From: Minisyncoccota bacterium
GTDB lineage: Bacteria > Patescibacteriota > Minisyncoccia > Phycocordibacterales > UBA2100
Length of the DNA: 64,000 nucleotides
Assembly (NCBI GenBank): GCA_031291875.1
Contig: JARLIE010000040.1
Coordinates: 67,011-131,010 of the forward strand
Reading direction: 5' to 3'
The stretch's first letter is position 1. The number at the start of each line of letters is the position of its first letter. The notes beneath the pieces are model-generated. The model did no database searches, had not been told where the DNA came from, and worked only from the letters and a program-made list of their open reading frames with translations. The translations under genes were made by a program, and so were the position numbers. Below are positions 10,781 to 62,024 of this stretch, piece by piece.

Positions 10781-10811
10781 TAGCACGCACTGTGCGTGCT
10801 ATTCTTTTTTC
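10781..10811 (+). terminator. palindromic hairpin + T-tract abutting the cydA start
   Basis: Perfect 10-bp inverted repeat TAGCACGCAC-t-GTGCGTGCTA followed by TTCTTTTTTC, then ATG of cydA at 10812. Confidence 0.5.
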
Positions 10812-12176
10812 ATGAGCCCGCTCATTCTCTCGCGAATACAATTCGGCGATACGGCCGCATTCCATATTCTCTGGCCGGTTATGTCGATCGGCATCGCGCT
10901 CTATATGGTTGTCATGGAGTCCATGTGGCTCTATACCAAAGAAGAATCGTACTACCGTCAGTTGCGTTTTTGGACAAAAATCTTTGTGCTCACGTTCGCC
11001 ATTGGCACCGCGAGCGGCCTGCCACTTTCGCTCGAATTCGGAACCAATTGGTCGCAGTTCGCGCAGGCGGCCGGTGATTTTATGGGTAATATTCTTGGGT
11101 TTGAAACTACGATCGCTTTCGCGCTTGAATCGGCATTTCTCGCGATACTTATATTCGGCTGGAAGCGGGTTCATCCGCTCATGCACCTTTTTTCGACCTT
11201 TATGGTCTTTATCGGTGCCTCGATCTCAGCCTTTTGGATCATGGTCGCCAACTCCTGGATGCAGGTGCCCGAGGGAATAACCGTTCAAAACGGACTCATC
11301 GTCGTTACGAACTACTCGCAGGCTATTTTTAATCCCGACTCCGTTGTTTCGTTTATGCACATGATGGGCGCGTGCGTCGAATCCTCGCTCTTCCTTATCG
11401 GCGGCATCGCGGCATGGCAACTACTAACAACTGAAGCGGGTCCGGTTCGAGATTTCTTTCGACAAACACTCGTGTATTGTCTTGCGATCGCGCTCTTTGT
11501 CGCGCCGCTGCAGGTAGTGATTGGTGACATGAGCGGACTCGTCGTCGCTCAGTATCAGCCGGAGAAGTTGGCGGCGCTTGAATTACAGTGGGACACGAAC
11601 GCTCCGGGTGAGGGAGCGGCATGGGATGTGGTCGCATGGCCGAATTCGACCAACAATGGTAACGCATTCGCCGTTTCGATCCCCAATGGATTGAGTCTCC
11701 TCACGACGCATTCGATGGAGGGGACGGTGCAAGGATTGAACGATTTTCAGGCAAGCGATCGACCAAGCGAAATGGAAGCCGTCATTACGTTTTATGGTTT
11801 TCGCTTGATGATGGTGATTGGTTTTTTGCTTGTCGCGCTCGCGCTCTGGAGCATCGTTTTGTGGTGGAAAGGGGGATTGTCGTCCGAGCGTATTGCACGT
11901 CATCGTGCTTGGCTTAGATGCTGGGTCGCGTCGATTCCGCTTGGTTTTATCGCGACGGAAGCTGGTTGGATGGTGCGCGAGATCGGTAGGCAACCCTGGA
12001 CCGTATATCACTTGATGCGTACCGCAGACAGCGTCTCAATCGGACTCACCAGTTACGAGGTAGGCACGACGACGCTCGTTGTTACCGCCGCTTACCTGGT
12101 ATTTGCTGGCGTATTCATCTATCTAAGTTATCGAATCGTTCGATCCGGTCCGGATCTCGTATCGCCGCTGCCATGA
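10812..12176 (+). CDS. cydA: cytochrome bd ubiquinol oxidase subunit I
   Basis: N-terminus LSRIQFGDTAAFHILWPVMSIGIALYM and Q-loop GWMVREIGRQPW match CydA. Confidence 0.85.
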   Translation: MSPLILSRIQFGDTAAFHILWPVMSIGIALYMVVMESMWLYTKEESYYRQLRFWTKIFVLTFAIGTASGLPLSLEFGTNWSQFAQAAGDFMGNILGFETTIAFALESAFLAILIFGWKRVHPLMHLFSTFMVFIGASISAFWIMVANSWMQVPEGITVQNGLIVVTNYSQAIFNPDSVVSFMHMMGACVESSLFLIGGIAAWQLLTTEAGPVRDFFRQTLVYCLAIALFVAPLQVVIGDMSGLVVAQYQPEKLAALELQWDTNAPGEGAAWDVVAWPNSTNNGNAFAVSIPNGLSLLTTHSMEGTVQGLNDFQASDRPSEMEAVITFYGFRLMMVIGFLLVALALWSIVLWWKGGLSSERIARHRAWLRCWVASIPLGFIATEAGWMVREIGRQPWTVYHLMRTADSVSIGLTSYEVGTTTLVVTAAYLVFAGVFIYLSYRIVRSGPDLVSPLP

Positions 12177-13165
12177 CCCCGACGCTACTCGCCCAAATTT
12201 GGTTCGCGATCATCTGCCTCGAAGCGGCCTTGTACGTGGTACTGGATGGCGGCAATCTAGGAATCGGCATGCTTTCGCTCGTGCCGCAGCCCGAACACGA
12301 GCGAGAAACGATCATGCGAGCGTTCGGGCCGATGTGGGATGCCAACGAGACATGGCTGCTTATCGCGGCCGCGACGACCTACGGCGCATTTCCTATGGTG
12401 TACAGCATCGCGCTCAATGCGCTCTATATTCCTGCATTCGTTTTCGGCGTCGGATTGGTACTGCGTGTTGCTTCGTACGAGTTTTATTGCAGCAGCGGAC
12501 AGCGGCTTTGGCGATTTCTCTTTGGGGTGGCGAGCCTCCTCGCTGTCGTGGGGCAGGGGTTTCTTCTGGGTGGTTTCATCAGCGGTATCTCGATTGCGAA
12601 CGGTCACTTTGCGGGTGGACCTTTAGACTGGGCGACGCCGGTTACCGCACTCTTTACGCTAGGCATCGTATTTGGCTACCTCGTGCTCGGTTATACGCGC
12701 CTTATCAACTTCGCGTCATACGAACTTTCGCCGAACGCGCTGCTCCAACTCTCGAGTGCGACCGTCATCGCCGCGTGCGCACTTATCGCCGGCGCGCTCC
12801 TTCTTCCGCATGCCAATTATCTGTATTTCGACCGCTGGACGGTACTACCAAGCGCATACATTCTCTATGTCATAGCCGCATGTATTGCGATTGTTTGCGC
12901 GGCGTTTGCGTACAACGTACTCACGAAGACCCACGTGCGAGAGTTGTATTACCTCAGTATGGCGATTTTCGCGCTCGGGTTTGTCGGCATGATCGTCGGT
13001 GTCTATCCGTATATTTTGCCGCCGAACGTCACTATCTTCGAGGCGGCCTCATCACCGGCAACGCAAGTGTTCATGCTTTGGGGGATCGGTCCGATTTTGC
13101 CGATAGTTCTCGTCTACAACTATTACATTCGCCGAATTTTCCGGCAGGACGGACCCGAATATTGA
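12173..13165 (+). CDS. cydB: cytochrome bd ubiquinol oxidase subunit II
   Basis: 330-aa polytopic protein. 4-nt overlap with cydA. N-terminus ...VVLDGGNLGIGML is typical of CydB. Confidence 0.8.
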   Translation: MTPTLLAQIWFAIICLEAALYVVLDGGNLGIGMLSLVPQPEHERETIMRAFGPMWDANETWLLIAAATTYGAFPMVYSIALNALYIPAFVFGVGLVLRVASYEFYCSSGQRLWRFLFGVASLLAVVGQGFLLGGFISGISIANGHFAGGPLDWATPVTALFTLGIVFGYLVLGYTRLINFASYELSPNALLQLSSATVIAACALIAGALLLPHANYLYFDRWTVLPSAYILYVIAACIAIVCAAFAYNVLTKTHVRELYYLSMAIFALGFVGMIVGVYPYILPPNVTIFEAASSPATQVFMLWGIGPILPIVLVYNYYIRRIFRQDGPEY

Positions 13166-13605: not shown

Positions 13606-13691
13606 ACAAGCACTATACGACTTTGATTGACCTAGTCAATACATGGGAACTTCACTTGTTGAATAGTAAAATATTTGATATACTCAAGTAT

Positions 13692-15616: not shown

Positions 15617-15678
15617 TGGCTTGCATGGCTCCAGTATAGCCCGAATGCTGGCTAGCTGCGGTGCTACACTGAAGAGAC

Positions 15679-16587
15679 ATGCGTCGCTCGACGATCGTTC
15701 TCTTGAGTATTTTTGTGCTCGCGCTTGCAGCAGCGACGTTCCTCTATGTCCGAAGTGCAACCATAGCCGTGCTCGATCCGGCTGGTCCCGTCGCCCTCGC
15801 CGAGAAAAACATCATCATTACGGCGACGTTTTTGTGTGCGCTGGTCGTTGTGCCGGTTTTCTTTTTGTTGTTTTTCTTTGCATGGAAGTATCGGGCCGAC
15901 AGTCCGCAGGCACAGCAATCCCACAAGCCGGATTGGGACCATGACAGCATTCTCGCGGAAGTGATTTGGTGGCTTGTTCCGGCCGTAATTATCGCTATCC
16001 TCGGCGTCATCGCGTGGAATAGTTCGCACGCGCTCGACCCGTATCGACCGCTCGAATCCGACGTTGCCACAATACCGATCGACGTCGTCGCGCTCGACTG
16101 GAAATGGCTCTTTATCTATCCGCAACAGGGAATCGCGAGCGTAAATCTTGTCGAATTTCCCGCAGGAACGCCGGTGCATTTCTATCTGACGGCAGACGCA
16201 CCGATGAACACGTTTTGGATACCGCAGCTTGCGGGGCAGGTTATGGTTATGCCCGGCATGACAACGCAGCTTAACCTGGCAGCGAGCAAAACGGGGGATT
16301 TCAACGGCTTCTCCGGAAACATCAGCGGAAAAGGATTTTCGGGCATGGCGTTTACCGCTCGTGCGGTAGATCAGCAAACGTTCAATACTTGGATCGCTTC
16401 AATAAAAGCTTCTTCGACACCGCTTACGCAAGAAGCCTACATAATGTTGGCGGCGCCAAGTGAATATAATCCGGTCGCGTATTACGACCTCGCGGAACCA
16501 AATCTCTTTGGTGCGATAGAATCCACCTATATGAATCCCGGATCGGCGATGCCGCAGGTGTCGCAAGGTATGACCGTGACACCATGA
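15679..16587 (+). CDS. cyoA: cytochrome o ubiquinol oxidase subunit II
   Basis: Two N-terminal TM helices plus a cupredoxin-like domain. FWIPQLAGQVMVMPGMTTQLNL...GFSG matches CyoA (quinol oxidase, no CuA ligands). Confidence 0.8.
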   Translation: MRRSTIVLLSIFVLALAAATFLYVRSATIAVLDPAGPVALAEKNIIITATFLCALVVVPVFFLLFFFAWKYRADSPQAQQSHKPDWDHDSILAEVIWWLVPAVIIAILGVIAWNSSHALDPYRPLESDVATIPIDVVALDWKWLFIYPQQGIASVNLVEFPAGTPVHFYLTADAPMNTFWIPQLAGQVMVMPGMTTQLNLAASKTGDFNGFSGNISGKGFSGMAFTARAVDQQTFNTWIASIKASSTPLTQEAYIMLAAPSEYNPVAYYDLAEPNLFGAIESTYMNPGSAMPQVSQGMTVTP

Positions 16588-18563
16588 ACTGGCAAACCTT
16601 GATCTTCGGGAATCTCTCGTGGTCGGTACTGCCCGAAAACGCGATCGCATGGTTCGGTGCGCTTACCGTTATCGCCGGTGTGCTCGCAGTGGTCGGCGTC
16701 GTTACGTATCTGGGCCGCTGGCAGTGGCTTTGGGACGAATGGTTCACATCGCTCGATCCGAAGAAAATCGGCGTTATGTACATCGTTGTCGCTCTCGTTA
16801 TGCTGGTGCGCGGCGGCTCCGACGCGCTCCTCATGCGCGCGCAACAGGCAACCTCGGTCGGCGATTCGTACGGCATTTTGACCTCGACGCACTTTCAAGA
16901 AATTTTCTCGGCGCATGGCTCGATCATGATCTTTTTCCTCGCGATGGGGTTTATGTTCGGACTTATCAACTTGATTGTCCCGCTGCAGATCGGATCGCGG
17001 GACGTCGCGTTCCCGTTTTTGAATTCGCTTAGCTTTTGGCTCTTCTTTGCCGGCGCGGCCCTGATCAACTGCTCACTCATTTTTGGCGATTTTTCTACGG
17101 CAGGTTGGCTCGCGTACCCGCCGCTTTCTGAATTGCGATATTCGCCGACTAGCGGCGTCGATTATTGGATCTGGTCGCTACAGATTGGCGGCCTAGGATC
17201 GCTGCTTTCGGGCGTGAACTTTTTTGCGACCATCGTGAAAATGCGTACGAAGGGGATGAACTGGATGCGTTTGCCGATGTTCAGCTGGACCGTGCTCGGC
17301 TCCATGACCCTCGTTATTTTCGCGTTCCCGATTCTCACCGTCACGCTCGCGCTGCTCTACCTCGATCGCACCGCCGGCATGCACTTTTTCACAGCAGAGC
17401 TCGGCGGCAATATGATGATGTACGTAAACTTGATCTGGGCGTGGGGACATCCGGAGGTGTATATTCTGATTCTTCCGGCCTTTGGCGTCTTTTCGGAAGT
17501 GGTGCCGGTTTTTTCGGGGAAGAAACTCGCCGGGTATACCTCGATGGTATTCTCTGTGTGGGCGATCGTGGTGCTCTCATTTATCGTATGGCTGCACCAC
17601 TTTTTCACGATGGGCGCGGGAGCGGACGTCAATGCGTTCTTCGGTATTATGACGGCCGTCATCGCCGTTCCCACCGGTGTCAAAATTTTCAACTGGCTTT
17701 TCACGATGTACCGCGGTCGCATTCGATTCGAGAGTCCGATGCTGTGGTTTATGGGATTCGTCGTGCTCTTTACGCTCGGCGGGGTCGCGGGTGTCGTGAT
17801 GGCGGAGCCACCGGCCGACTATCAGCTGCACAACTCTCTCTTTCTCGTCGCGCACTTCCACACGATGATCGTCTCCGGCGTGCTGTTCGGGTACTTTGCA
17901 GGGCTCACGTTCTGGTTTCCAAAAATATTCGGATTCAAAATGAACGAAAAGTGGGGGATTCGTGCGTTTTGGTTCTGGCTGATCGGCTTTATTCTCGCGT
18001 TCGGGCCGCTCTACTTGCTTGGCTTTGAGGGTGCGACCAGACGGCTCGACCATTATTCTTCTTCGCTCGGATGGCAGCCCCTTTTTATCGTCGCCGGCAT
18101 CGGTGCGATTTCTATAGCCATCGGTTTTTCATGCCAGGTGGCGCAGCTTGTCGCGACGTTTCGCGACTACAAGCGTAATCGCGTCGGCAACGATCCGTGG
18201 GACGGTCGCACGCTCGAGTGGTCGGTCGCTTCTCCAGCGCCCTCGTACAACTTCGCCGCCCTCCCGATTGTGCACTCGCGCGATGAGTTCTGGGAAGAAA
18301 AACACGGCGCGAGCACCCAGGAGCAAAAATTTGAGGATTTTTCTATGCCAAAAAATACCGGTGCCGCGGTTATTGTCAGTAGTTTTGTGTTCTTGCTGGG
18401 GTTTGGCGCCGTATGGCATATCTGGTGGCTCGTTATCGCCGCGCTGCTTGGTGCAACGATCGCGGTGCTCGTCCATGTTTTCAACGAAGACTCCGAATAC
18501 GCAGTGAGCGGCGCGCAGCTTGCACACCGCGAAGCGGGACTGCAGTATCCGACCAGCCTATGA
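16584..18563 (+). CDS. cyoB: cytochrome o ubiquinol oxidase subunit I (heme-copper oxidase)
   Basis: 659 aa. WAWGHPEVYILILPAFGVFSEVV, HHFFTMG and other heme-copper subunit I signatures. Confidence 0.9.
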   Translation: MNWQTLIFGNLSWSVLPENAIAWFGALTVIAGVLAVVGVVTYLGRWQWLWDEWFTSLDPKKIGVMYIVVALVMLVRGGSDALLMRAQQATSVGDSYGILTSTHFQEIFSAHGSIMIFFLAMGFMFGLINLIVPLQIGSRDVAFPFLNSLSFWLFFAGAALINCSLIFGDFSTAGWLAYPPLSELRYSPTSGVDYWIWSLQIGGLGSLLSGVNFFATIVKMRTKGMNWMRLPMFSWTVLGSMTLVIFAFPILTVTLALLYLDRTAGMHFFTAELGGNMMMYVNLIWAWGHPEVYILILPAFGVFSEVVPVFSGKKLAGYTSMVFSVWAIVVLSFIVWLHHFFTMGAGADVNAFFGIMTAVIAVPTGVKIFNWLFTMYRGRIRFESPMLWFMGFVVLFTLGGVAGVVMAEPPADYQLHNSLFLVAHFHTMIVSGVLFGYFAGLTFWFPKIFGFKMNEKWGIRAFWFWLIGFILAFGPLYLLGFEGATRRLDHYSSSLGWQPLFIVAGIGAISIAIGFSCQVAQLVATFRDYKRNRVGNDPWDGRTLEWSVASPAPSYNFAALPIVHSRDEFWEEKHGASTQEQKFEDFSMPKNTGAAVIVSSFVFLLGFGAVWHIWWLVIAALLGATIAVLVHVFNEDSEYAVSGAQLAHREAGLQYPTSL

Positions 18564-19165
18564 CCGACGAATTCGACCGCAGCGGCATACTTTCCGTCGA
18601 CGAAAAGTCCAAGGACTCGACGATCGTTTTCGGATTTTGGATGTACCTAATGACCGATCTCGTACTCTTCGCGAGCCTCTTTGTCGTTTTCGTCGTACTG
18701 CGTGGGCCCGAGTATGGCGGGGCATCGATCAAAAATACTTTCGATTTGCAGTATGTTTTTATCGAAACGATCGCGCTCTTGGTAAGCAGCTTCACGTGCG
18801 GACTCGCGCTTTTGTTCGCGCGCGAAGGGAATGTTCGGGGCACGGTATCATGGCTCTTAGCCACGTTCGTGCTTGGCGCCGCGTTCGTCGCGATGGAGGT
18901 TTCTGAATTTTCTCGTCTTCTTGCGCAAGGACTCGCACCCGCTCGCGACGGATTTCTCTCCGGTTATTTCACGCTCGTCGGAACGCACGGTGCGCACGTA
19001 ACCGTCGGGCTCCTCTGGCTCCTCGCGATGGTCGTGGCGATTGCCGGCAGGGGACTCTCCCGCGGGAATATGCGCAAGCTCGCGCTCTTTGCGATGTTTT
19101 GGCACTTCCTCGATGTGATCTGGATTTTTATCTTTACCATTGTGTACCTGATGGGCGTGCTATGA
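18560..19165 (+). CDS. cyoC: cytochrome o ubiquinol oxidase subunit III
   Basis: ATG at 18560 overlaps cyoB stop (ATGA). MTDEFDRSG...FGFWMYLMTDLVLFASLF and 5 TM are typical of CyoC. Confidence 0.8.
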   Translation: MTDEFDRSGILSVDEKSKDSTIVFGFWMYLMTDLVLFASLFVVFVVLRGPEYGGASIKNTFDLQYVFIETIALLVSSFTCGLALLFAREGNVRGTVSWLLATFVLGAAFVAMEVSEFSRLLAQGLAPARDGFLSGYFTLVGTHGAHVTVGLLWLLAMVVAIAGRGLSRGNMRKLALFAMFWHFLDVIWIFIFTIVYLMGVL

Positions 19166-19542
19166 AAAACTATTTCGAAGAAATCGGTGCTTGGCCTCGC
19201 TCACACAACATCGCCGGTTCGTACGCCGTCGGCTTCGCGCTCTCGCTCATGCTGACATTCGCGGCGTATGAGTTCGTCGTGCAAAACGCGCTGCCCCATG
19301 GGTGGCTCGTAGCAGTAGTCGTGGGTGCCGCAATTTTGCAGTTCATCGTGCAGGTATATTGTTTTCTCCACATAGGAACCGACTCGAGTACGCGCGAGCG
19401 ACTTTTCGCGCTTTCGTTTGCAGGACTCTTGATGCTGATTCTCGTCTCCGGATCACTCTGGATCATGTTCGATCTCAATGGTCGTATGAGGCCGGATAGC
19501 ACGCAGATGGTGCAATATATGAACGACCAAGGTGGTTTCTAA
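19162..19542 (+). CDS. cyoD: cytochrome o ubiquinol oxidase subunit IV
   Basis: 126 aa, 3 TM. ATGA overlap with cyoC. Position in operon. Confidence 0.65.
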   Translation: MKNYFEEIGAWPRSHNIAGSYAVGFALSLMLTFAAYEFVVQNALPHGWLVAVVVGAAILQFIVQVYCFLHIGTDSSTRERLFALSFAGLLMLILVSGSLWIMFDLNGRMRPDSTQMVQYMNDQGGF

Positions 19543-19545
19543 CCT

Positions 19546-20412
19546 ATGATCAAAGCCTACTATCGTCTCTCGAAGCCTGGCATCGTATACGGGAATTTGC
19601 TCACGACGATCGCCGCATTTTTGTACGCTTCGCGTTGGGGACTGGTTTCATGGGATGCGTGGATCGTGTTTCTTGCAACCGTCTTTGGACTCGGGCTTGT
19701 TATTGCCTCCGCCTGCGTGTTCAATAATTTTATCGATCGGGACATTGATCGAAAAATGAAACGCACGAAGAATCGCGCACTCGCAACCGGCGAGCTATCC
19801 AACGAGAACGCGCTTCTGTTTGCCACAATCATCGGTCTTATCGGCTTAACTCTCCTCATCGCCTTCGTGAACCTGCTGAGTGCGTTCATCGCGTTCGTCG
19901 GTTTCGCGGTCTATGTCTTCGCCTACACGCTTCTGAAACGCACCACGGCGTGGGCGACGGAAATTGGAAGTATCTCCGGAGCCGTTCCGATTCTTGTCGG
20001 TTACACGGCCGTGACGAATCGTTTCGATCTGGTCGCACTCATGCTCTTCGCGATCATGATTTTCTGGCAGATGCCGCATTTTTTTGCGATCGCACTCTTT
20101 CGTTTCGACGACTATGCTGCGGCGAATATTCCGACGCTGCCGCTCAAAAAAGGCGCACGTGTTACTAATATTCGCGCGCTCATCTATATCGTGCTCTTTG
20201 CAATTGGCGTGCTCGCGCTCACGGTACTTGGTTACGCCGGGTACTGGTATCTCGTGGTAGTGGAGATCGCGGCAGTCGTATGGTTTTGGCGAGGCACGCA
20301 AGGATTCGCTGCGGTGCATACTGAAGCCTGGGCCCGTAAATTTTTCTTCACCTCACTTGTCGTGCTTCTGGTTTTTGCAGCGATGCTTTCAATCGCGAAT
20401 CTCGTATTCTAG
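19546..20412 (+). CDS. cyoE: protoheme IX farnesyltransferase (heme O synthase)
   Basis: UbiA-family motifs NNFIDRDIDRKMKRTKNRALATGEL. 288 aa polytopic. Confidence 0.85.
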   Translation: MIKAYYRLSKPGIVYGNLLTTIAAFLYASRWGLVSWDAWIVFLATVFGLGLVIASACVFNNFIDRDIDRKMKRTKNRALATGELSNENALLFATIIGLIGLTLLIAFVNLLSAFIAFVGFAVYVFAYTLLKRTTAWATEIGSISGAVPILVGYTAVTNRFDLVALMLFAIMIFWQMPHFFAIALFRFDDYAAANIPTLPLKKGARVTNIRALIYIVLFAIGVLALTVLGYAGYWYLVVVEIAAVVWFWRGTQGFAAVHTEAWARKFFFTSLVVLLVFAAMLSIANLVF

Positions 20413-21505: not shown

Positions 21506-21585
21506 GATGTGACCGCGCTTGCGGTCCTGCGGGGATACTACTCTCCTGGGTCGGCTTTCGCAAAGCCTGTGCTACGATGCCCGAA

Positions 21586-21924
21586 ATGAGATACAAGGGC
21601 ATTGTTCAAAAAGGCAGAGAGTACGGCAAAACGCTCGGTTTTCCGACGCTTAACATAAAAATCGACGGCGATGCCGTCTCGGGCATTTTTGCGGCCAATG
21701 TAACGATTGAGGCGAAAACGTATCCGGCCGCCGCCTACACCGACCTTTCACGCGGTGTTCTTGAGGCATATCTTCTGGATTACTCGGGAGATTTGTACGG
21801 CAAGGAAATTGAAATCGAGCTCTTAAAAAAGATTCGCGAAGACGAAACATTTGCCGACGAGGCCTCGCTCAAGACGGCGATCGCCGCTGATGTTGCAAAG
21901 ATCCGAGAATACTTTACTTTGTAA
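21586..21924 (+). CDS. riboflavin kinase (stand-alone RibF C-terminal-type domain)
   Basis: GKTLGFPTLNI (PTAN motif) and E..LLDYSGDLYG..IEIELLKKIREDETF. Second ATG (21586) chosen because the -10-like TGCTACGAT overlaps the first ATG at 21577. Confidence 0.7.
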   Translation: MRYKGIVQKGREYGKTLGFPTLNIKIDGDAVSGIFAANVTIEAKTYPAAAYTDLSRGVLEAYLLDYSGDLYGKEIEIELLKKIREDETFADEASLKTAIAADVAKIREYFTL

Positions 21925-21927
21925 ACC

Positions 21928-22512
21928 ATGTTCGCAGGCATCGTGCAGGCTAGCGCGCGCGTCAAAGCGCTCGAAGAAGAGAAGAGAATACTTCGCGCAC
22001 GAATCGAAGCACCTCGAAGCTGGAAACTCGAACTCGGCGCGAGTGTGAATATCGACGGTATCTGTTCGACCGTGGTGAAAAAGGGAAGGGGGTATTTCGA
22101 CGTCGAATATATGGCGCAAACACTTTCCAAAACCACCGCGGCTTCGTTTACGAAAGGCCGATTGGTAAACCTCGAGCGCTCCCTCAAGTACGGCCAGTCA
22201 ATCGATGGTCATCCGGTGCAAGGACACGTCGACTGCACAGCGCCGATTACGGAGATCGCAAGGAAAGGAGCTTCTCGGGAGTTGACCATACGACCAAACG
22301 CAAAGCTCGCGCGGCAGGCGGCGCTGCACGGTTCCATCGCGATCAACGGCGTTTCGCTTACGATCGCGAAGAAACACGGCCCGAACATTACCGTCGCGCT
22401 CATTCCATATACGCTCAAACACACGAACCTCGGCACTCTCAAAGCAGGCGATGTGGTCAATGTCGAATTTGACCACTCGCGGGCCTACCTGGATAAGGTG
22501 CGCGGAAGGTGA
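21928..22512 (+). CDS. ribE: riboflavin synthase alpha chain
   Basis: MFAGIVQ... N-terminus and duplicated lumazine-binding halves (GASVNIDGICSTVV / GSIAINGVSLTI). Confidence 0.8.
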   Translation: MFAGIVQASARVKALEEEKRILRARIEAPRSWKLELGASVNIDGICSTVVKKGRGYFDVEYMAQTLSKTTAASFTKGRLVNLERSLKYGQSIDGHPVQGHVDCTAPITEIARKGASRELTIRPNAKLARQAALHGSIAINGVSLTIAKKHGPNITVALIPYTLKHTNLGTLKAGDVVNVEFDHSRAYLDKVRGR

Positions 22513-22524
22513 TACCGTTCCGAT

Positions 22525-22986
22525 ATGCAAACAGAAGAATTTTTGAAAAAAATAAAAGCTCGCGACGCTTCGAAGCTCAAAGTCTCCATTGTCGCCTCCA
22601 GGTTCCACTCGGACATTACCGACCCAATGGTTGAAGGTGCGCTCGGGACGCTGAAAGAGTGGAAGGTTAAGGATAAAAACATCACGGTTCGCCGCGTATA
22701 CGGCTCGTTCGACCTTTCGTTCGCCGCTGCTCGCGCGATAAAAAAAGACAAGCCGCATGCAGTCATTGCGATCGGCTGCATCGTGAAGGGAGAAACAAGG
22801 CACGATGAATATATCGCGAACGCGGTATTCAAAGGCCTGACGGATCTCTCGATACAACACGTCATTCCTGTTTCGCTCGGTGTACTCACCGTCAACGATC
22901 TGGCACAAGCGAAAGTCCGCTCGAGCGGAGCGACGAACCACGGCGAAAAAGCCGCAGTCGCAGCGCTCGAAGCCGCGCTTTCGTAG
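22525..22986 (+). CDS. ribH: 6,7-dimethyl-8-ribityllumazine synthase
   Basis: KVSIVASRFHSDIT...AIGCIVKGETRHDEYIANAV...SLGVLTV match RibH. Confidence 0.85.
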   Translation: MQTEEFLKKIKARDASKLKVSIVASRFHSDITDPMVEGALGTLKEWKVKDKNITVRRVYGSFDLSFAAARAIKKDKPHAVIAIGCIVKGETRHDEYIANAVFKGLTDLSIQHVIPVSLGVLTVNDLAQAKVRSSGATNHGEKAAVAALEAALS

Positions 22987-22988
22987 CT

Positions 22989-23963
22989 ATGCGGTCTACC
23001 TCGTTTGCGGTACTCGGTCCCTTGATCGTGTTCGTCGCGGCGATGCTGTGGGCCTCCGACGCTCCGTTTCGTCTGCATCTCACGCTGGCGCTCTCGTCGA
23101 ACTTCATCGTGTTCGGCGAGCATTTTTTTGATTGTCTCGTAGCGCTTCCGATTCTGTTTTTCAACTGGAACGATATAACAAAGCTCTCATGGCGCGAGTG
23201 GCTTGCGGTCGGCTTTATCGCAATCGGCGGCTCGGCACTCGCGTCGATTCTCTTTACGGAATCGTTCCACTACGTGAATCCATCGGTCGCTATCGTGCTC
23301 CAGAAAGTGCAGCCGCTCATCGCGATTGCACTCGCATGGGCAGTCCTTGGAGAAAAACTCCACCCGCGCTTTTGGCTTTGGGGTAGTATCGCGCTCGTTG
23401 GCGCGTATCTCGTGAGTTTCCCGAACCTGGTTCCCCAAACGTATGCGGGAGAAACGTTCAACCCCAACCTTCTCGGCGCGCTCTATGCGCTTTCTGCGGC
23501 CGCACTCTGGGGCGCATCGACTGTTTTCGGCAAGTACGTGTTGCAAAAGGCAGCGTTCCAAACGATGACTGGACTGCGTTTCGTTGTTGCCTTCGTCTTT
23601 CTTGGAGTTCTCAACGGCGTACAGGGGACCTTTCCCGATTTTGCGACACTAACGTCCACCGACTATTTCTTTATCGCTATCATCGCCCTGTGTTCGGGAG
23701 TTTTTTCCCTCTATTTATATTACTTCGGGCTCAAATACACCCGCGCCTCGATCGCTACTATCGCGGAGCTTGGCTTCCCGCTCGCTGCTGTATTCGTCAA
23801 CGCCTACTTCATACCGGGCAATTGGGCGCCGGGCTCGACGCTCGGCTTGTATGCGGGCCAGTGGGCAGGGACGTTGATTCTACTGCTCTCCATGTTCATG
23901 CTTTCTCGAGTTAATCGAGAGGAATCCTCCCTGGCCGAAGGCAGGTCCCTCCAAACCATATGA
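22989..23963 (+). CDS. DMT/EamA-superfamily transporter (10 TM), candidate riboflavin-related transporter
   Basis: 324 aa, 10 hydrophobic helices with two-repeat EamA-like organisation. Embedded between ribH and ribL. Confidence 0.5.
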
Positions 23964-24382
23964 CTCGGATCATGGTGTTCGGCACGTTCGATATGGTTCA
24001 TCCGGGCCATGAAAATCTTTTCCAACAGGCAAGAGCGCTTGCACAGGAGCCGCACTTGATTGTCTCGATCGCGACCGACAAAAACGTCGAACGCATAAAA
24101 GGCAAAAAGCCGCGGCATTCGCAAACCGAGCGTCGAGCGCTCGTGGCCGCGAACCCGCTGGTCGACGAGGCGGTGATAGGAGACGAAGCGGGGTACGTTG
24201 AGCATATTCGCGCGCTACGGCCGGACATAATCGCGCTTGGTTACGATCAGACCGGGGAATACGTGGATACACTGCAGGAAGATTTGACGAAGGCAGGACT
24301 TAGCGTCAATGTTATGAGATTGCAGGCATTTGAACCGGAGCGGTTCAAGACCTCCAAACTTCATGACGAACGAAACCGATGA
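23960..24382 (+). CDS. archaeal-type FAD synthetase (RibL-like cytidylyltransferase-fold FMN adenylyltransferase)
   Basis: [11 protein letters not shown] nucleotidyltransferase motif. [23 protein letters not shown] and [13 protein letters not shown] are collinear with RibL as I recall it. Confidence 0.7.
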
Positions 24383-24923
24383 GATGATCGCTGCACGCGT
24401 GCAAAACGGAGACGTTGAAAGCTTCAGTGCGCTCGTGGAGCGCTATGAGGACAAGCTTACGCGCTACGCACGCAAATTCTTGCGCGATCCGGACGACGCC
24501 AAAGACATCATCCAGGAGGTGTTCATTAAGGCATTCGAAAATATCCAGAGTTTCGACGCGACGCGACGTTTTTCCCCATGGATCTACCGCATCGCGCACA
24601 ATGAATTCGTAAATGCCATCAAAAAGCGAGCCAGGGGTCCCGTACTCGGCATAGATTTCGATGTTGTATTTCCGCATCTTGCGGCGACCGACACCGCCGA
24701 CGATACGGCACTCGAGCGCGACACGAAGGAATTGCTCGAGCAGTGCCTCGACGAACTAGAACCGAAATATCGGGAGCCGCTGGTTTTGTATTATTACGAA
24801 GGGGTAAGTTACAAAGATATGGCTGATATTTTGCGTATACCGATGTCGACGGTTGGCGTGCGACTCGCAAGAGGGAAGGCGCAGCTACGGAAAGTTGCAG
24901 CAAAGAAAAACCTATATGATTGA
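24363..24923 (+). CDS. ECF-subfamily RNA polymerase sigma factor
   Basis: Sigma70 region 2 ([14 protein letters not shown]...[19 protein letters not shown]) and region 4 ([37 protein letters not shown]). Overlaps ribL-like gene by 20 nt. Confidence 0.8.
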
Positions 24924-25623
24924 ACAAGATCCCAAAAAAGCGCTTACTCGGGGCGTAATGGACGCTATCCACTCGGGACGCGTACAAATGCGTCCGCGCT
25001 GGAAGTTCGTACTTTCGGGTGTTTTGGCTGCGCTCGGCGTCGCGATTTTACTGTTCACACTGCTTTTCATTGTAAGTTTCGCGATTTTCACCCTGCGTCA
25101 AACGGGCGCGTTGTTCGTGCCTGAATTCGGTATGCGCGGCGTTTTCGTGTTTTTCGCGGCTCTGCCGTTCATACTCCTCGCACTCCTTCTAGTCTTCGTT
25201 ATCGTTCTCGAGGTATTGGTTAGGCGGTACCGGGTAGGGTACCGTACCCCGCTTCTCGTTTCGGTACTCGCTATTTTGATCATTATTGGACTCGGCGGGC
25301 TAGGTATTGAGCGTACCCGCGTTCATGAAATGATTTTGCGGGAGGCAATGATGCCCGGAGAGCTTCCGCCACCGATCGCGATCATGTATCGCACCGGCGC
25401 ACAGCATATACCCGACGTGTACCGCGGAACGATTGTTGCGATGATGCCGGGAGGATTCGTGCTCTTGGACGAAAACGGCGCCGGTACCACCAGCGTGCTT
25501 TTAAGCCCGCTCACCCAGCTTCCGCCCGGGACAATTCTGCAGCCTTCCGAACAGGTGGTGGTCTTCGGCGATGGAGATTCCACGACCATACGCGCGATGG
25601 GCATCGTGCAGATTACGGATTGA
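24917..25623 (+). CDS. membrane protein, putative anti-sigma factor
   Basis: Immediately downstream of and overlapping the ECF sigma gene. 3-4 TM. No zinc-finger anti-sigma motif seen. Confidence 0.4.
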
Positions 25624-25780
25624 AATAATCTGCACGAGGCGGTAGTAGTAGAGATAGCTGGCATCCCTTCGCGCCTCTTGCGCAGAAGGACCCAGCGATT
25701 GGGGTTCCACAAGAATTCCAAGCGAGCGCCTGTCTCCTGACCCCGAGGCAGGCGATTCGCATTTGTGCTATGTTCATCGA

Positions 25781-26179
25781 ATGAAATACTTAGGTATCGA
25801 CTTCGGCTCGAAGCGTATTGGCATTGCCGTCTCGAACGCCGAGGGCTCGATTGCGTTTCCTCGCTCAACACTTTTGAATGATGACAAGCTTTTTGCCGGA
25901 CTCGGGAAACTCATCGAATCCGAAAAGATAGAACGGATCGTCGTCGGCGACACTCGTTCGCATGGCGGAGGCGAAAACCCAGTGACGGCTCAAGCGGAGA
26001 AGTTCATGGAACGTCTTGCACAAGAGACGGGCAAGCCGGTTGCGCCTGCTTTTGAGGTTTTTTCATCCATAGAAGCTTCGCGCTACGCGCCCTATACGCC
26101 CGGAGCAAGACAGCATGATGATTCCGCAGCTGCAGCGGTTATTTTGCAAAGATTTTTAGATATGCACGGCTCGCGGTAG
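25781..26179 (+). CDS. ruvX: Holliday-junction resolvase-like RNase H-fold nuclease RuvX/YqgF
   Basis: MKYLGIDFGSKRIGIAVS...IVVGDTRSHGG. Confidence 0.8.
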   Translation: MKYLGIDFGSKRIGIAVSNAEGSIAFPRSTLLNDDKLFAGLGKLIESEKIERIVVGDTRSHGGGENPVTAQAEKFMERLAQETGKPVAPAFEVFSSIEASRYAPYTPGARQHDDSAAAAVILQRFLDMHGSR

Positions 26180-26188
26180 AATCCTGCT

Positions 26189-26521: not shown

Positions 26522-26605
26522 GCGAGTGCAGCTCGATGATATAATTTGAAGATGCATCGCGCTCTTTCTGAACGCGCAAGCGGAGTCGGCCAGACGCTCT
26601 CGCGC

Positions 26606-29372: not shown

Positions 29373-29426
29373 GTGTGTCCGAGTAACTATTCGATTCTAA
29401 GTCCACATCTGCTATATTGATCCCGC

Positions 29427-29636: not shown

Positions 29637-29717
29637 ACAAACGAGACCGATGCATGCCATCGGTCGACTAGGGAAAATTTGCCCAATCAGCCCCCTGATG
29701 CTATAGTGCCGCGACTT

Positions 29718-30191
29718 ATGGCATTCAAGATTTCACCGGTCGACACGGAGGCCCGCAGCAGGCTCGATATTCGAGCCGGCGACACTGTCCGTGTACACCA
29801 GAAAATCGAAGAAAAGGGGAAGTTTCGTATCCAGATCTTCGAGGGCTTGGTGCTTGCCCGCAAGCACGGCCGCGAAGCCGGGGGCACCTTTACTGTTCGC
29901 CGCGTCCTATCGGGCGTCGGTGTTGAGAAGATTTTCCCGCTCTACTCTCCAATGATCGACAAGATCGAGATCGTGAAGCGCTCCCGCGTACGCCGCGCGA
30001 AGCTCTACTTCATCCGCGAGAAGGTTGCCCGCGAAGCTCGCCGCCAGTTGCGCCGCACGCGCATGATGACCAGCGACGAAATGCAGGCGGAATTTGCCAA
30101 CGAAAGCGAGGCACAAAAGGAAAAGATCGTCGAAGAGATGACTGCTCCGACCAACGACGCGGTCGAAACGACTGGCGAGAAATCCGAATAG
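29718..30191 (+). CDS. rplS: 50S ribosomal protein L19
   Basis: [51 protein letters not shown]...[44 protein letters not shown], with an acidic C-terminal extension. ATG 10 nt after TGCTATAGT. Confidence 0.85.
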
Positions 30192-31203: not shown

Positions 31204-31260
31204 AACGCCGGAATTCTACATCAAAGATGCAATAAGTCAAGTATCTGCTATAGTACTCGC

Positions 31261-33800: not shown

Positions 33801-33948
33801 ACGTCGCCCTAGTATACCCAAAAGAAAACCGGACGGAACATTCTTCCACCTGATTTAAGGATTCGAACCACTGCCCCTCGCAGAGAGCAACAGGGCTCGA
33901 GTGCGCAGCCGCGAGTCGCATAGGCTTTTGGGTGGTACCATCTCGAGT

Positions 33949-36730: not shown

Positions 36731-37432
36731 TTAGCGGATCTCCTCGTAGGTGAAGCGTCGCTGCCATGACGCGGGAAGCAACGCGACGAACGTCCAGTAG
36801 AAAAGGGTGTACCACCAGCCGAGCGCCTCGAAGCGGCGGATCGAGGTCGAGGCGTTTTTGGTCCACAGATAAAAGAATTTACCGTGACGCTCGGCCTGTC
36901 TGATCATGTCGATATCCTCCGCAGTCACCATGTGCTCGTTGTAGCGCAAAAGGGGGAAGAGCGAACGCTTCACGAGTTGCATGGTGAATGAGGTTCTCGA
37001 GAGCATGTGGCCGACGTTGTGCACCCAAAACCAGGCGCGGGCATACGCGGTATCGGGGAACGGACGCAGTGAAACGGTTCCTGTCGTGTAGCCAGTGCGG
37101 CGCGAAAGAAACGCATTCAGTTCTTTGAGAATGTCTTTCTCAAGAAAGGTGTCCGCATCGAGAAAAATAACCCAATCGCTTTGCGGTGAAAGATGATCGA
37201 TTCCCGTGTTTCTCGCGCGAGAGGCCCCCTTGTCGCTTTGAAGTACGTGAAAATTGCCGTCTTCGAATTTTTTCGCGAGAGCGAGCGTCCGATCGGTCGA
37301 TCCGTTCTCTATCACGAGCACTTCGTATTTCGATGTCGGATATTCCAAACGCTTGAGGTGTATCAGCGTGCTCTCGAGGTATCGTTCTTCATTGTGGGCG
37401 GGAATGACGAATGAAAAAAAGAGGGGCTCCAT
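36731..37432 (-). CDS. family-2 glycosyltransferase
   Basis: FSFVIPAHNEERYLESTL...VLVIENGSTDRT...IFLDADT. Confidence 0.7.
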   Translation of the reverse strand: MEPLFFSFVIPAHNEERYLESTLIHLKRLEYPTSKYEVLVIENGSTDRTLALAKKFEDGNFHVLQSDKGASRARNTGIDHLSPQSDWVIFLDADTFLEKDILKELNAFLSRRTGYTTGTVSLRPFPDTAYARAWFWVHNVGHMLSRTSFTMQLVKRSLFPLLRYNEHMVTAEDIDMIRQAERHGKFFYLWTKNASTSIRRFEALGWWYTLFYWTFVALLPASWQRRFTYEEIR

Positions 37433-38028: not shown

Positions 38029-38049
38029 AATTATTGTAGTATACCTTGC

Positions 38050-39362: not shown

Positions 39363-39387
39363 GCTACCCACATGCTATCCTTTTTGC

Positions 39388-39606: not shown

Positions 39607-39626
39607 CGGGTGTATACTGAGTACAT

Positions 39627-40569: not shown

Positions 40570-40881
40570 ATGGCAAACCCCTTTACCCAATACCTCAAAG
40601 ATACGCGAAACGAGCTCAACCACGTCGCCTGGCCGACCCAGCGCCAGACGATCGTTTTCACGGCGCTCGTCGTTGTGATTTCGCTCGGCATTGCCGCGTA
40701 CGTCGGTCTTCTCGACTACGGACTTCGCATTACGCTTCTCGATATCGTTACTTCGAGCGGCAATCCGAACGCTTCCAACGCGGTTCAGGTAACCCAACAG
40801 CCGACCGTTTCAACCTCTACGGCGACCGGCGCCAACCCCACCTTCAACCTCAACGGTGGTTCGACTAACTCGACCAAATAA
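40570..40881 (+). CDS. secE: preprotein translocase subunit SecE with Ser/Thr-rich C-terminal extension
   Basis: SecE-type single TM (TQRQTIVFTALVVVISLGIAAYVGLLDYGL) directly before nusG. ~40-aa S/T/N-rich tail. Confidence 0.8.
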   Translation: MANPFTQYLKDTRNELNHVAWPTQRQTIVFTALVVVISLGIAAYVGLLDYGLRITLLDIVTSSGNPNASNAVQVTQQPTVSTSTATGANPTFNLNGGSTNSTK

Positions 40882-40886
40882 TTCGT

Positions 40887-41432
40887 ATGGCTAAACAAAC
40901 ACACGGAACAGAACGCCAGTGGTACGCGGTCCACACGTACTCGGGCTACGAAGACGCAGTTGCTCGCAACTTGAAACAGCGCGTCGAGTCTTTTGGCATG
41001 AGCGGCCTCATCTTCAATGTCGTGGTCCCGACCGAAAAGAAGATCAAGATTAAGAACGGCCGTAAGACGGAAGCTAAGGAGAAAATTTTCCCGGGCTACC
41101 TGCTGGTCGACATGATCGCGACCGATGAGGCGTGGTCGGTCGTTCGTAACACGCCGCAGGTCACCGGTTTCGTCGGCACCGCCAACCAGGCCGTTCCGCT
41201 TTCAGTCGAAGAGGTCGACAAGATCCTGAGGCGCTCGACGGGCGAGCAGGTCCGTCACGCGATTGATCTTGCGCCGGGCGACGCTGTCTCAATCATCGAC
41301 GGTCCGTTCAAAGATTTGGAAGGAAAAGTCGGCGAGATTGACGAAGAGCGAGGAAAAGTTAAAGTGTTGGTTCCTATGTTCGGTCGCGAGACTCCCGTGG
41401 AGCTCGAAGCCGATCAGGTACAGCGACTCTAA
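40887..41432 (+). CDS. nusG: transcription termination/antitermination factor NusG
   Basis: WYAVHTYSGYE...KIFPGYLLVDM...FKDLEGKV (NGN + KOW). Confidence 0.9.
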   Translation: MAKQTHGTERQWYAVHTYSGYEDAVARNLKQRVESFGMSGLIFNVVVPTEKKIKIKNGRKTEAKEKIFPGYLLVDMIATDEAWSVVRNTPQVTGFVGTANQAVPLSVEEVDKILRRSTGEQVRHAIDLAPGDAVSIIDGPFKDLEGKVGEIDEERGKVKVLVPMFGRETPVELEADQVQRL

Positions 41433-41893: not shown

Positions 41894-41918
41894 TTCCTCG
41901 GTAACACGAGGAATTTTG
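41894..41918 (+). terminator. rho-independent terminator directly after rplK
   Basis: TTCCTCG-gtaacac-CGAGGAA followed by TTTTG. Confidence 0.6.
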
Positions 41919-41944
41919 CTATCTGGTTCTCTAGGAGAGATAGC

Positions 41945-42493
41945 ATGATCTTTGAAGTAAAACTGCGACGCAAGCTCCGGGCTTGGCTCGGTACGAGGCC
42001 TGTAATCTCAACGACTTCACAGGCAGCAGTCAGGCAATTTCCCTGGCTTATAGACCTCGTTCCGCTACGAAGCCGCATCGAATGCGAAGAGCACATGGTG
42101 CAGTATCTGGATGATCCGTTGATCAAGAAGATCACGCAGGTGAACCAGCCGTGTGTTGATCGGCACATTCAGTGCGCATACCTGGTGACGGCGACGGGAA
42201 AAGTTGCCGGCGACGTGAGAGCTCGTCTGCGTCCCGATCGAAGCTACCACTTCCCGCTAACCTGGAGCGATATCTTCGGCGCCGTCATCGAGACGCCGGA
42301 GGTGGTCCAGTACGTCGTTGCCGTCGACACTTCGAAAAGCTTTACTCGTCTGCATGTCTTCATCATGCCGGAGAACGTGAAGCCCCGTGAGTTGGCACGA
42401 AAGTGTCTGCGGGTGACGATAGCCGACGCGTGGACCTCCGATACGAGAGCTGTCGTATCGACCCGGCTTCGCTCTCAAGCGAGTCGAATCTAA
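41945..42493 (+). CDS. hypothetical protein occupying the position where rplA is normally found
   Basis: 182-aa ORF with a good AGGAG Shine-Dalgarno 8 nt upstream (rare in this window). Bounded by terminators at 41894-41918 and 42505-42545. No recognisable domain. Confidence 0.45.
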   Translation: MIFEVKLRRKLRAWLGTRPVISTTSQAAVRQFPWLIDLVPLRSRIECEEHMVQYLDDPLIKKITQVNQPCVDRHIQCAYLVTATGKVAGDVRARLRPDRSYHFPLTWSDIFGAVIETPEVVQYVVAVDTSKSFTRLHVFIMPENVKPRELARKCLRVTIADAWTSDTRAVVSTRLRSQASRI

Positions 42494-42561
42494 GGCGCCT
42501 TGCGCGTGACCTGTCCCCGAATCGCTCTAGCGATTCGGGGACTTTTTTGCATAATCAGCAT

Positions 42562-43200: not shown

Positions 43201-43238
43201 GGCGAGACGACCGCATTCTGACGGGGTACAATAGCTCC

Positions 43239-44888: not shown

Positions 44889-44929
44889 ATTTCGGGCCTT
44901 CAAATCGATCGAATTGGTACAATAGCGCG

Positions 44930-45478: not shown

Positions 45479-45566
45479 GATACTGTGCAGCGACTCCCGC
45501 GCAAGCGAATTACTCCTAAGTACGTTTTTTGATAGACCGCGCCTCTACGGCGGGTACACTGCATGT

Positions 45567-47156: not shown

Positions 47157-47226
47157 TATAGGGCTCGTGGTGTAACATAATCGGAGCTTTGGGGTAATTG
47201 AGCCCCATTGTTTCTGGGAGGAATCT

Positions 47227-47406
47227 ATGATTAATGCGACTGAGCCGACGCAGGCGTCGAATAGCGACAACCGCTTCTTTCTGGCCGTCAGAGGGGGAGC
47301 GGTTATCGAAGGGACGCGCCATTCCGAAGCTGAAGTGCGGAAAGTCGTCGACACGCTGACTCACAGCGGGAAAGACTCGCACTATCTGTACCACGATCGG
47401 CAGTAG
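47227..47406 (+). CDS. small protein (59 aa), paralog A
   Basis: Strong SD GGGAGG 7 nt upstream. Followed by terminator hairpin GGCCGGTGCA-gtcaa-TGCACCGGCC. Shares the NRFFLAVRGGAVIEG / DRNLVTIAGEIAGRY pattern with the next ORF. Confidence 0.35.
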   Translation: MINATEPTQASNSDNRFFLAVRGGAVIEGTRHSEAEVRKVVDTLTHSGKDSHYLYHDRQ

Positions 47407-47783: not shown

Positions 47784-47793
47784 AGTCACCATG

Positions 47794-47828
47794 AGGCCGG
47801 CGCCGTTTCGCGCCGGCCTTATTTTTTT
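47794..47828 (+). terminator. rho-independent terminator
   Basis: AGGCCGGCGC-cgtttc-GCGCCGGCCT followed by TATTTTTTTGC. Confidence 0.7.
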
Positions 47829-47844
47829 GCTACCATAGATTCAA

Positions 47845-51262: not shown

Positions 51263-51277
51263 CGGTACGCTCTCGAC

Positions 51278-54643: not shown

Positions 54644-54698
54644 GGAAGGTGAGGTAGTACCGTACCGCCTCGCTGGGCCTCGCGGTATACTAGGGGAC

Positions 54699-56729: not shown

Positions 56730-56762
56730 CTGCGGCGCTTATTTTGCGCTACACTCTTTCGC

Positions 56763-58470: not shown

Positions 58471-58531
58471 GTTGCTGTCCGAGCCGCCGAGTCCTCGACG
58501 TTGAGGAATTTGAATATGCTAGGATGGCGCT

Positions 58532-59605: not shown

Positions 59606-59645
59606 CCTCTACAAGTGTCGTGCAACGAGCAACTATGTTTAAAAT

Positions 59646-61961: not shown

Positions 61962-61978
61962 TTGCACTTTTATTCTTG

Positions 61979-62010: not shown

Positions 62011-62024
62011 GCTATACTTCCGAC

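Follow-up and report, generated by a model that had tools for sequence, protein, structure and literature searches.

The DNA analysed here is a window of 64,000 nucleotides (nt) from a Minisyncoccota bacterium (contig JARLIE010000040.1, positions 67,011 to 131,010 of the forward strand), and the element in question is a short box resembling an extended −10 promoter that stands immediately upstream of many of its genes, typified by the copy before rplS. The window has a GC content of about 54%, and the closest relatives of its IleS protein come from metagenome-assembled genomes (MAGs) labelled Candidatus Kaiserbacteria, Paceibacterota or Patescibacteria, with at most 75% identity over the best aligned segment; this places the DNA in a genome of Parcubacteria type within the candidate phyla radiation. 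Five tRNA genes are present, all on the forward strand; beyond the tRNAs no Rfam family reaches its gathering score in the window, and no 16S rRNA gene is found in the window or in any of 153 loci. Pfam identifies COX2-like, L19, IleS, AI-2E, TatD, flavokinase, MFS and S6 proteins and bears out the gene names given by an earlier, sequence-only reading of this DNA. At rplS the box TGCTATAGT occupies 29699–29707 on the forward strand and is separated from the start codon, ATG 29718, by a gap of 10 nt; an A at 29714 lies 7 nt past the box, which gives a predicted leader of ACUU. Among the 62 genes of our curated set, 36 (~58%) have a TAnnnT box at a gap of 5–10 nt.

Across the window as a whole the nine-letter form of the box, TGNTANNNT, is not enriched, with 46 matches against 56.6 ± 7.7 expected from dinucleotide shuffles, and the signal is therefore purely positional. 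Because the earlier choice of start codons had used the motif itself, which is circular, we called genes independently of it, as greedy longest open reading frames (ORFs) of at least 120 amino acids (aa) beginning at their first ATG; this gave 60 starts, which were compared with 318 internal in-frame ATGs and with all ATG trinucleotides of the window. A TANNNT hexamer begins at −14 to −12 before 23 of the 60 starts and 7 of the 318 internal ATGs (Fisher p = 6e-15), and before 3.5% of all ATG trinucleotides. The full 9-mer is found at a gap of 5–10 nt before 13 of the 60 starts and 3 of the 318 controls (p = 5e-9), and 13 of the 46 9-mers sit 0–12 nt 5′ of a called start, where 0.28 would be expected. 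The histogram of offsets has a sharp peak at −12 to −14. A scan of the window with a position weight matrix (PWM), as the sequence-only reading had suggested, placed its 11 top-scoring matches all at gene starts, and matches of at least 8 bits on which the matrix had not been trained include GTG 43239 (argS), ATG 21586 (riboflavin kinase), ATG 25781 (RuvX), ATG 44930 (YgjP-like), ATG 39388 (a 72-aa ORF) and tRNA-Val. The box observation is confirmed as real and highly non-random. Once the start-proximal copies are removed, about 31 of the 9-mers are left, against the 56.6 ± 7.7 in shuffles; this deficit away from starts may reflect selection against spurious −35-independent promoters within genes, and codon-usage effects are also possible.

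Alignment of 31 start-proximal boxes gives the hexamer TA[T/C]A[A/C]T. All 36 TAnnnT boxes have A at position 2 and T at position 6, two bases that the CATAAT and CATACT variants also retain; the internal positions favour T or C, A, and A or C (TAYAMT). Two bases upstream of the hexamer stands a G in 23 of the 31 aligned sites (74%), preceded by T in 15 of the 31 (~50%). Neither the G nor the TG was a criterion in picking start-proximal sites. The G occurs at 17 of 23 start-proximal boxes and at 259 of 936 (28%) other TANNNT hexamers of the window (p = 7e-6), and the TG at 12 of 23 and 34 of 936 (3.6%), respectively (p = 3e-11). No clear −35 element is seen: between −40 and −5, counted from the first base of the hexamer, every column carries less than 0.25 bit, the best TTGACA match at spacers of 15–19 nt scores a mean of 3.0, barely above the 2.7 at control TANNNT sites, and canonical two-hexamer promoters are not enriched in the window (11 versus 10.1 expected). 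No archaeal-type signal near −26 appears in the offset histograms or position profiles.

The gap between box and start codon is narrowly distributed. Over 34 sites it is 6 nt in 17, 7 in eight, and 8, 9 and 10 in three each, so that 28 of the 34 fall at 6–8 nt; the start codon is ATG in 30 and GTG in four. A gap of 6 puts the hexamer at −12 to −7 with the A of the start codon at +1, which is the canonical distance between a −10 element and the first transcribed base. In the gap-10 class, comprising rplS, rpsF and the GT2 gene at 33800, an A lies 7 nt past the box and ACNT precedes the ATG, an arrangement that predicts a 4-nt leader; rplS and rpsF have ACTTATGGCA in common.

The start codons to which these distances refer are supported by protein domains. 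With residue numbers of the predicted protein paired with those of the Pfam profile, the alignments begin at 1 and 1 for RuvX, 4 and 1 for TatD, 6 and 2 for ArgS, 6 and 1 for CydA, 16 and 16 for L19, and 2 and 6 for flavokinase, the last compatible with a start at ATG 21586. Taking the first ATG proved wrong at argS, tmk and riboflavin kinase, and the box corrected all three.

The sequence-only reading also held that most of these genes lack a Shine–Dalgarno (SD) sequence, and this is borne out. SD-like 4-mers at −16 to −7 precede only 4 of 60 genes, and the computed duplex with the anti-SD is no stronger at starts (median −1.9 kcal/mol) than at internal ATGs (−2.5 kcal/mol; p = 0.21). At the threshold of −6 kcal/mol 6 of the 62 curated genes pass, as do 6.3% of control sites, and only ATG 47227 and ATG 41945 are convincing, the same two genes for which clear SD sites had been reported. 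At the former, GGGAGG lies 5 nt before the start of a 59-aa ORF (47216–47229, forward strand; duplex −10.2 kcal/mol). At the latter (41917–41947, forward strand), a box-like TGCTATCTG is followed after about 19 nt by AGGAG and the start of an ORF without a Pfam match. An alphaproteobacterial locus, L054, served as positive control for the SD test and scored 5/5. The ORF at 41945–42493, which also has a low coding score, follows rplK (L11, 41445) directly, so that rplK is not followed by rplA (L1); L1 has been reported absent from some Parcubacteria. This ORF hints that the few SD-led genes may be atypical or acquired.

The claim that two initiation modes coexist understates the asymmetry, since SD-led genes are a small minority and a third class has neither signal. 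That class comprises 12 of the 62 genes, which are tightly coupled to the gene upstream by an ATGA overlap or by 1–12 nt past its stop. An example is secE/nusG (40879–40889, forward strand), where the secE TAA and the nusG ATG at 40887 are 5 nt apart with no box and no SD; the other coupled starts are 9105, 12173, 16584, 18560, 22989, 27669, 37432 (reverse strand), 38753, 41445, 51711 and 63398. Pfam validates the starts in this class, with alignments beginning at 3 and 1 for SSB, 9 and 1 for L11, 11 and 2 for NusG and 6 and 1 for CydB. The CAnnnT variant accounts for 3 of the 62 genes, among which only the tmk case is persuasive, and 5 of the 62 fit none of these classes, including secE, where TAAAAT stands 13 nt upstream, and a MarR gene at 8671 whose box is ~33 nt away on the upstream side. 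Counted by transcription unit, about 37 of about 46 (~80%) have leaderless geometry.

We compared the window with two samples of relatives. The first consists of ileS-linked loci, including loci of the candidate phyla radiation (CPR). Orthologues of ileS have TAnnnT 6–9 nt before the start although their N-terminal lengths differ: loci L001, L012 and L047 have TGCTACGAT at a gap of 6, and similar boxes are found in L002, L003, L010, L014, L015, L037, L039 and L042. The ileS box moves with the start codon among orthologues. Among the CPR loci, 18 have a GC of at least 0.47, and in these the box lies at −12 or −13 in 27.5% of 91 genes versus 1.5% of controls, and SD-like words are depleted; 49 CPR loci of lower GC show a weaker peak (6.4% versus 1.3% at −12). 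The second, independent sample comprises 80 metagenomic contigs with MetG relatives (56–75% identity), amounting to 854 kb and 680 automatically called genes. Several related contigs stem from the Hainich aquifer assemblies ERZ12926xx. Here the box begins at −14 to −12 in 29.3% of genes versus 2.1% of controls, and in 43% of genes that are first in their unit, while SD words are at background (9.4% versus 9.9%), also among internal genes (9% versus the control rate of 9.9%). The gaps again favour 6 nt (85 sites, followed by 31 at 7, 16 at 8, 32 at 9 and 18 at 10), and the G two bases upstream of the hexamer (73%) and the TG (57%) exceed their frequencies across all hexamers (24% and 5.7%). A positional base profile computed with no predefined motif recovers T at −12, A at −11, T at −7, T at −15 and G at −14. 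The metG promoter itself was not used for comparison, as metG is often internal to an operon and its start registration is one codon off in many loci. The layout is common to related Paceibacteria/Kaiserbacteria-like CPR genomes.

The 11 exact TGnTAnnnT boxes listed by the sequence-only reading were all found at the positions it gave, and those before protein-coding genes have the gaps of 6–10 nt it had described. All are on the forward strand. Besides the rplS copy they precede the MFS gene (TGATATACT, 13676–13684, gap 7, ATG 13692), a cyoA-like gene (TGCTACACT, 15662–15670, gap 8, ATG 15679), a DUF2914 gene (TGCTATAGT again, 31246–31254, gap 6, ATG 31261), the gene at ATG 33949 (TGGTACCAT, 33933–33941, gap 7), ileS (TGCTACCAT, 47828–47836, gap 8, ATG 47845), an AI-2E transporter gene (TGCTAGGAT, 58517–58525, gap 6, ATG 58532), tatD (TGCTATACT, 62010–62018, gap 6, GTG 62025) and rpsF (TGGTAAAGT, 62861–62869, gap 10, ATG 62880, with a predicted 4-nt leader). 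The riboflavin kinase box (TGCTACGAT, 21570–21578) is present as reported, but ATG 21577 falls within it; the geometry suits the next in-frame ATG, at 21586 (gap 7), which is probably the true start. The motif is more widespread than had been noted. Further exact boxes, missed by the sequence-only reading and also on the forward strand, precede the gene at ATG 2479 (TGCTACAAT, 2463–2471, gap 7) and, each at a gap of 6, cydA (TGCTATTCT, 10797–10805, ATG 10812), the lumazine synthase gene (TGATACCGT, 22510–22518, ATG 22525, where the box opens in the final codons of the gene upstream and runs across its stop), RuvX (TGCTATGTT, 25766–25774, ATG 25781), pilM (TGATATAAT, 26537–26545, ATG 26552), the 72-aa ORF (TGCTATCCT, 39373–39381, ATG 39388) and the YgjP-like gene (TGGTACAAT, 44915–44923, ATG 44930). 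To these come about 17 boxes of the form nGnTAnnnT.

Other boxed genes on the forward strand include those for a tRNA-binding protein (CGGTAGAAT, 26174–26182, gap 6, ATG 26189), a SIMPL protein (GTGTATACT, 39610–39618, gap 8, ATG 39627), argS (GGGTACAAT, 43224–43232, gap 6, GTG 43239, replacing a first-ATG call at 43107), a PIF1-like helicase (GGGTACACT, 45552–45560, gap 6, ATG 45567), recO (CGATAGAAT, 50675–50683, gap 6, ATG 50690, with the box inside the 3′ end of ileS), a GNAT protein (CGGTACGCT, 51263–51271, gap 6, ATG 51278), a DUF11 protein (CGGTATACT, 54683–54691, gap 7, ATG 54699, the highest PWM score in the window), a class II aminoacyl-tRNA synthetase (CGCTACACT, 56747–56755, gap 7, ATG 56763) and metG (AACTATGTT, 59631–59639, gap 6, ATG 59646), whose box is weak and has no G two bases upstream of the hexamer. 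On the reverse strand, boxes precede a PAS histidine kinase gene (GTATACTAT, 4227–4235, gap 7, GTG 4219, with an overlapping TATACT at a gap of 9), a MarR gene divergent from the MFS promoter (TCGTATAGT, 13612–13620, gap 6, ATG 13605), a DoxX gene (GGCTATACT, 15633–15641, gap 6, ATG 15626), the gene at ATG 31203 (ATGTAGAAT, 31213–31221, gap 9), the GT2 gene (GGGTATACT, 33811–33819, gap 10, ATG 33800) and a P-type ATPase gene (CGGTAAATT, 36876–36884, gap 9, GTG 36866). Overlapping divergent boxes are found at 38034–38046, where TTGTAGTAT serves PAP2 on the forward strand (gap 7, ATG 38050) and AGGTATACT serves DedA on the reverse strand (gap 9, ATG 38028); the DedA/VTT and PAP2 starts are 21 bp apart, and their overlapping opposite-strand boxes form a symmetric bidirectional promoter.

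Two of the boxes are directly preceded by strong intrinsic terminators. Upstream of ileS (47791–47836), a hairpin at 47791–47822 is followed by TTTTTT and then GCTACCAT, the terminator being fused to the box, and the place of a −35 element falls in the terminator hairpin. At tmk (42513–42555, forward strand, ATG 42562), a terminator at 42513–42542 with a T-run likewise ends directly before the variant box TTGCATAAT (gap 6), with the −35 place inside the hairpin. The terminators abut the −10 box of the next gene, and their T-run supplies the T of TGn, as in TTTTTTGCTACCAT (ileS), TTTTTTGCATAAT (tmk) and, at tatD, a GC hairpin with a T-rich run and CTTTCTTTGCTATACT (~61978–62018). The intergenic layout is extremely compact. 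For a T-box or other leader RNA 5′ of ileS and rplS, Rfam returned only noise-level matches.

The clearest non-coding target of the box is tRNA-Val, with TGCTATATT at 29410–29418 on the forward strand. It ends 8 nt, not the claimed 13–19 nt, before the mature 5′ end at 29427, a distance from which a primary transcript with a 5′ leader of only 1–2 nt is predicted. The boxes proposed for tRNA-Ser (TGGTACAAC) and tRNA-His (TGTTATAAC) end in C and so do not fit the TGnTAnnnT consensus, and none of the other four tRNA genes of the window has a comparably placed strong box. ARAGORN found no tRNA genes in the ileS or metG loci of Patescibacteria, its sole tRNA being in the non-Patescibacteria locus L057, and masking with N was not the cause; because those loci have no tRNA genes, support for the tRNA part of the claim comes from the five genes of the window, of which only tRNA-Val has a good box.

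Several other features of gene content accompany these sites. Two terminal oxidase sets are present, cytochrome bd (cydAB, 10812–13165) and a cyoA-like to cyoE cluster (15679–20412, ending in heme O synthase/UbiA), with the MarR, MFS and DoxX genes flanking. A riboflavin/flavin adenine dinucleotide (FAD) cluster at 21586–24382 encodes riboflavin kinase, riboflavin synthase, lumazine synthase, an EamA transporter and a cytidylyltransferase/FAD-synthetase-like protein, and its box-type promoters lie where the preceding genes end (21912, 22510). At 24330–25623 a sigma factor of the extracytoplasmic function type (Sigma70_r2 and r4_2) is followed by an overlapping ORF at ATG 24916, possibly an anti-sigma factor, and no clear box marks either start. 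An ATP-citrate-lyase-like pair at 51711–54643 is translationally coupled through ATGA, its first gene having Citrate_bind and ATP-grasp domains and its second CoA-ligase and citrate synthase C-terminal domains, a metabolism unexpected for a Parcubacteria-type genome.

The best-supported reading, which we hold with considerable confidence, is that the boxes are leaderless or near-leaderless extended −10 promoters. The sequence-only reading had reached the same view, and the −10 consensus, the modal gap of 6, the starts backed by Pfam and by ileS orthologues, and the relatives support it, with transcription starts placed by geometry. According to this model, −35-independent extended −10 promoters (TGnTAnnnT) would be read by the housekeeping sigma-70-family holoenzyme, with the hexamer at −12 to −7 from the start codon. 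Where the gap is 6–8, RNA polymerase would begin at the A (or G) of the ATG or GTG; where it is 9–10, as at rplS and rpsF, transcription would begin roughly 2–4 nt upstream of the start codon. The resulting mRNAs would have no 5′ untranslated region (UTR), or a vestigial one, and the ribosome would load straight on the 5′-terminal AUG without SD pairing. Downstream cistrons are most likely translated by termination–reinitiation coupling, because they overlap or abut the upstream stop (ATGA, or TAA, 2–12 nt and ATG) and have neither box nor SD.

A number of observations weigh against this interpretation or restrict it. Where transcription starts, which sigma factor acts, how the ribosome loads and whether reinitiation occurs are all inferred from sequence, and the window contains no rpoD gene. 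As the 3′ tail of the 16S rRNA was unreadable, every SD test assumes a canonical anti-SD. The gaps of 9–10 nt at six sites imply leaders of about 2–4 nt, that is, near-leaderless rather than strictly leaderless transcripts. Six of the curated starts (21586, 25781, 39388, 42562, 43239 and 44930) were chosen or found with the aid of the box, five of them having Pfam support, and in-frame TAG or TAA stops 5′ of ORFs partly inflate the count of boxes at −12. A pyrimidine at −1, considered as evidence for the transcription start, was rejected, since it is stronger in unboxed genes (31 of 37) than in boxed ones (16 of 23). At position −1 of starts, in the window and in loci L074–L153, T is favoured (47–48%) and G avoided (9–13%); this bias is shared by boxed and unboxed coupled genes, and a start-site preference of the promoter is therefore insufficient by itself to explain it.

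That the signal is an artefact of chance or composition, produced by in-frame stops before ORFs, AT-rich intergenic DNA and circular choice of starts, is scarcely credible. Apart from the missing window-wide enrichment of the 9-mer, such an explanation can draw on the second peak of the offset histogram, at −6, where TAAnnT before ATG represents the TAA stop codons of upstream genes, and on the few −12 boxes that open with an in-frame TAG (26189, 50690 and 58532). Stop codons do not explain the signal, because the peaks at −13 and −14 lie out of frame, because a peak at −12 persists when only TA[CT]NNT is counted (9.3% in relatives), and because site selection has no bearing on the TG enrichment. 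The motif-independent gene calls speak against circularity, AT richness is not seen in the spacer or in the DNA upstream (AT 0.47 and 0.50 versus 0.46 for the window), and the pattern is replicated in the independent contigs.

It is likewise improbable, although less so, that the boxes are true −10 elements whose start codons have been mis-assigned, the true starts lying further downstream behind ordinary leaders. Start calls are ambiguous in places, as the three failures of the first-ATG rule attest, and the N-terminus of S6 projects 20 residues beyond its Pfam profile. Yet the Pfam domains of RuvX, TatD, ArgS, CydA, GT2 and flavokinase begin 1–6 residues from the predicted start and that of L19 at the matching profile position, alignments of ileS orthologues extend to query residues 1–14 with the box shifting along with the start, and there is no SD signal that could mark alternative starts downstream. 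We find it very unlikely, too, that the motif is a translation signal, a non-SD ribosome-binding or standby site on leadered mRNA as in group B of GeneMarkS-2. It does lie at the usual distance of a ribosome-binding site, another signal might be expected where SD sites are missing, and some boxed genes begin only 1–15 nt past an upstream stop (21928, 22525, 26189, 50690 and 51278). Against this, the motif is the −10 consensus of sigma-70, upstream TG included, it precedes the untranslated tRNA-Val, and the strong terminators that end right before the ileS and tmk boxes leave no upstream transcript to carry them. It is also absent from the 12 coupled internal genes, the starts of which are validated by Pfam, while in group B the motif stands before first and internal genes without distinction (PMC6028130).

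A leaderless promoter architecture of this kind has relatives among known systems. Extended −10 promoters (TGnTATAAT) work without a −35 element in E. coli and are common in Gram-positive bacteria and mycobacteria. The boxes share with them a TG one base 5′ of the hexamer, the conserved A2 and T6 and the lack of a clear −35, but here this apparently is the default promoter class and not a subclass, and the TG is looser, with T at about 50% and G at about 74%. In Haloferax volcanii most mRNAs are leaderless, and SD sequences are not used for initiation at 5′ UTRs. The window resembles haloarchaea in its very high predicted leaderless fraction, its little or no SD dependence and its tightly packed or overlapping cistrons, and differs in having a sigma-70-type box about 10 nt before the start instead of an archaeal TATA box and transcription factor B recognition element at about −26. 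Termination–reinitiation coupling and 70S scanning are known from overlapping stop and start codons; in model bacteria, an SD sequence usually assists reinitiation. Downstream starts at ATGA or 1–12 nt past a stop fit such systems, although no SD is detectable here and the mechanism is deduced from spacing alone.

The closest parallel is group C of GeneMarkS-2, in which a Pribnow box lies 6–8 nt from the starts of genes that are first in their operon; its signature occurs in 90% of Actinobacteria and 97% of Deinococcus-Thermus genomes, for example in Mycobacterium tuberculosis, Streptomyces, Corynebacterium and Deinococcus deserti, with an estimated 25–50% of transcripts leaderless and the other genes modelled with SD ribosome-binding sites (PMC6028130). 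Archaea, too, have a high leaderless fraction (PMC6028130). As in group C, the TAnnnT box stands 6–8 nt before first genes, which have no SD, and the ATG or GTG is at the predicted 5′ end of the mRNA. Unlike group C, the predicted leaderless share is about 80% of units, operon-internal genes are without the SD sites with which group C models them, and the lineage is a Kaiserbacteria/Paceibacteria-like branch of the CPR. The window differs from group B, the Bacteroidetes type, in that the box is absent from coupled internal genes, is present before tRNA-Val and has terminators directly upstream, and from archaeal group D in lacking a TATA-like box some 26 nt before the start codons.

Searches of open-access full text turned up no paper that connects leaderless expression or the use of SD sites with Patescibacteria, the candidate phyla radiation, Saccharibacteria or Parcubacteria, and in a 2025 promoter survey Nanosynbacter lyticus is the sole CPR representative. 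The lineage appears to be new for a group C-type architecture; the mechanism itself is not new. That genes are expressed from leaderless mRNAs is already established for Actinobacteria, Deinococcus-Thermus and archaea. The CPR, or Patescibacteria, account for a large share of bacterial diversity; almost none of them have been cultivated, their ribosomes are unusual, and to our knowledge their translation initiation is essentially unstudied. Evidence from sequence for mostly leaderless mRNAs combined with translational coupling, and for SD use near background, in one CPR lineage thus provides a concrete hypothesis, and gene callers tuned to SD sites will do poorly on such genomes. We regard as evenly balanced the broader proposition that this Kaiserbacteria/Paceibacteria-like branch is essentially without SD-led initiation, with about four fifths of its units transcribed leaderless from extended −10 promoters that have no −35 and downstream cistrons only stop/start-coupled. 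If true, this would give bacteria an equivalent of the haloarchaeal regime, possibly tied to the reduced CPR ribosome (no L1 gene follows L11 here), and SD-trained gene callers would systematically misplace starts in CPR MAGs.

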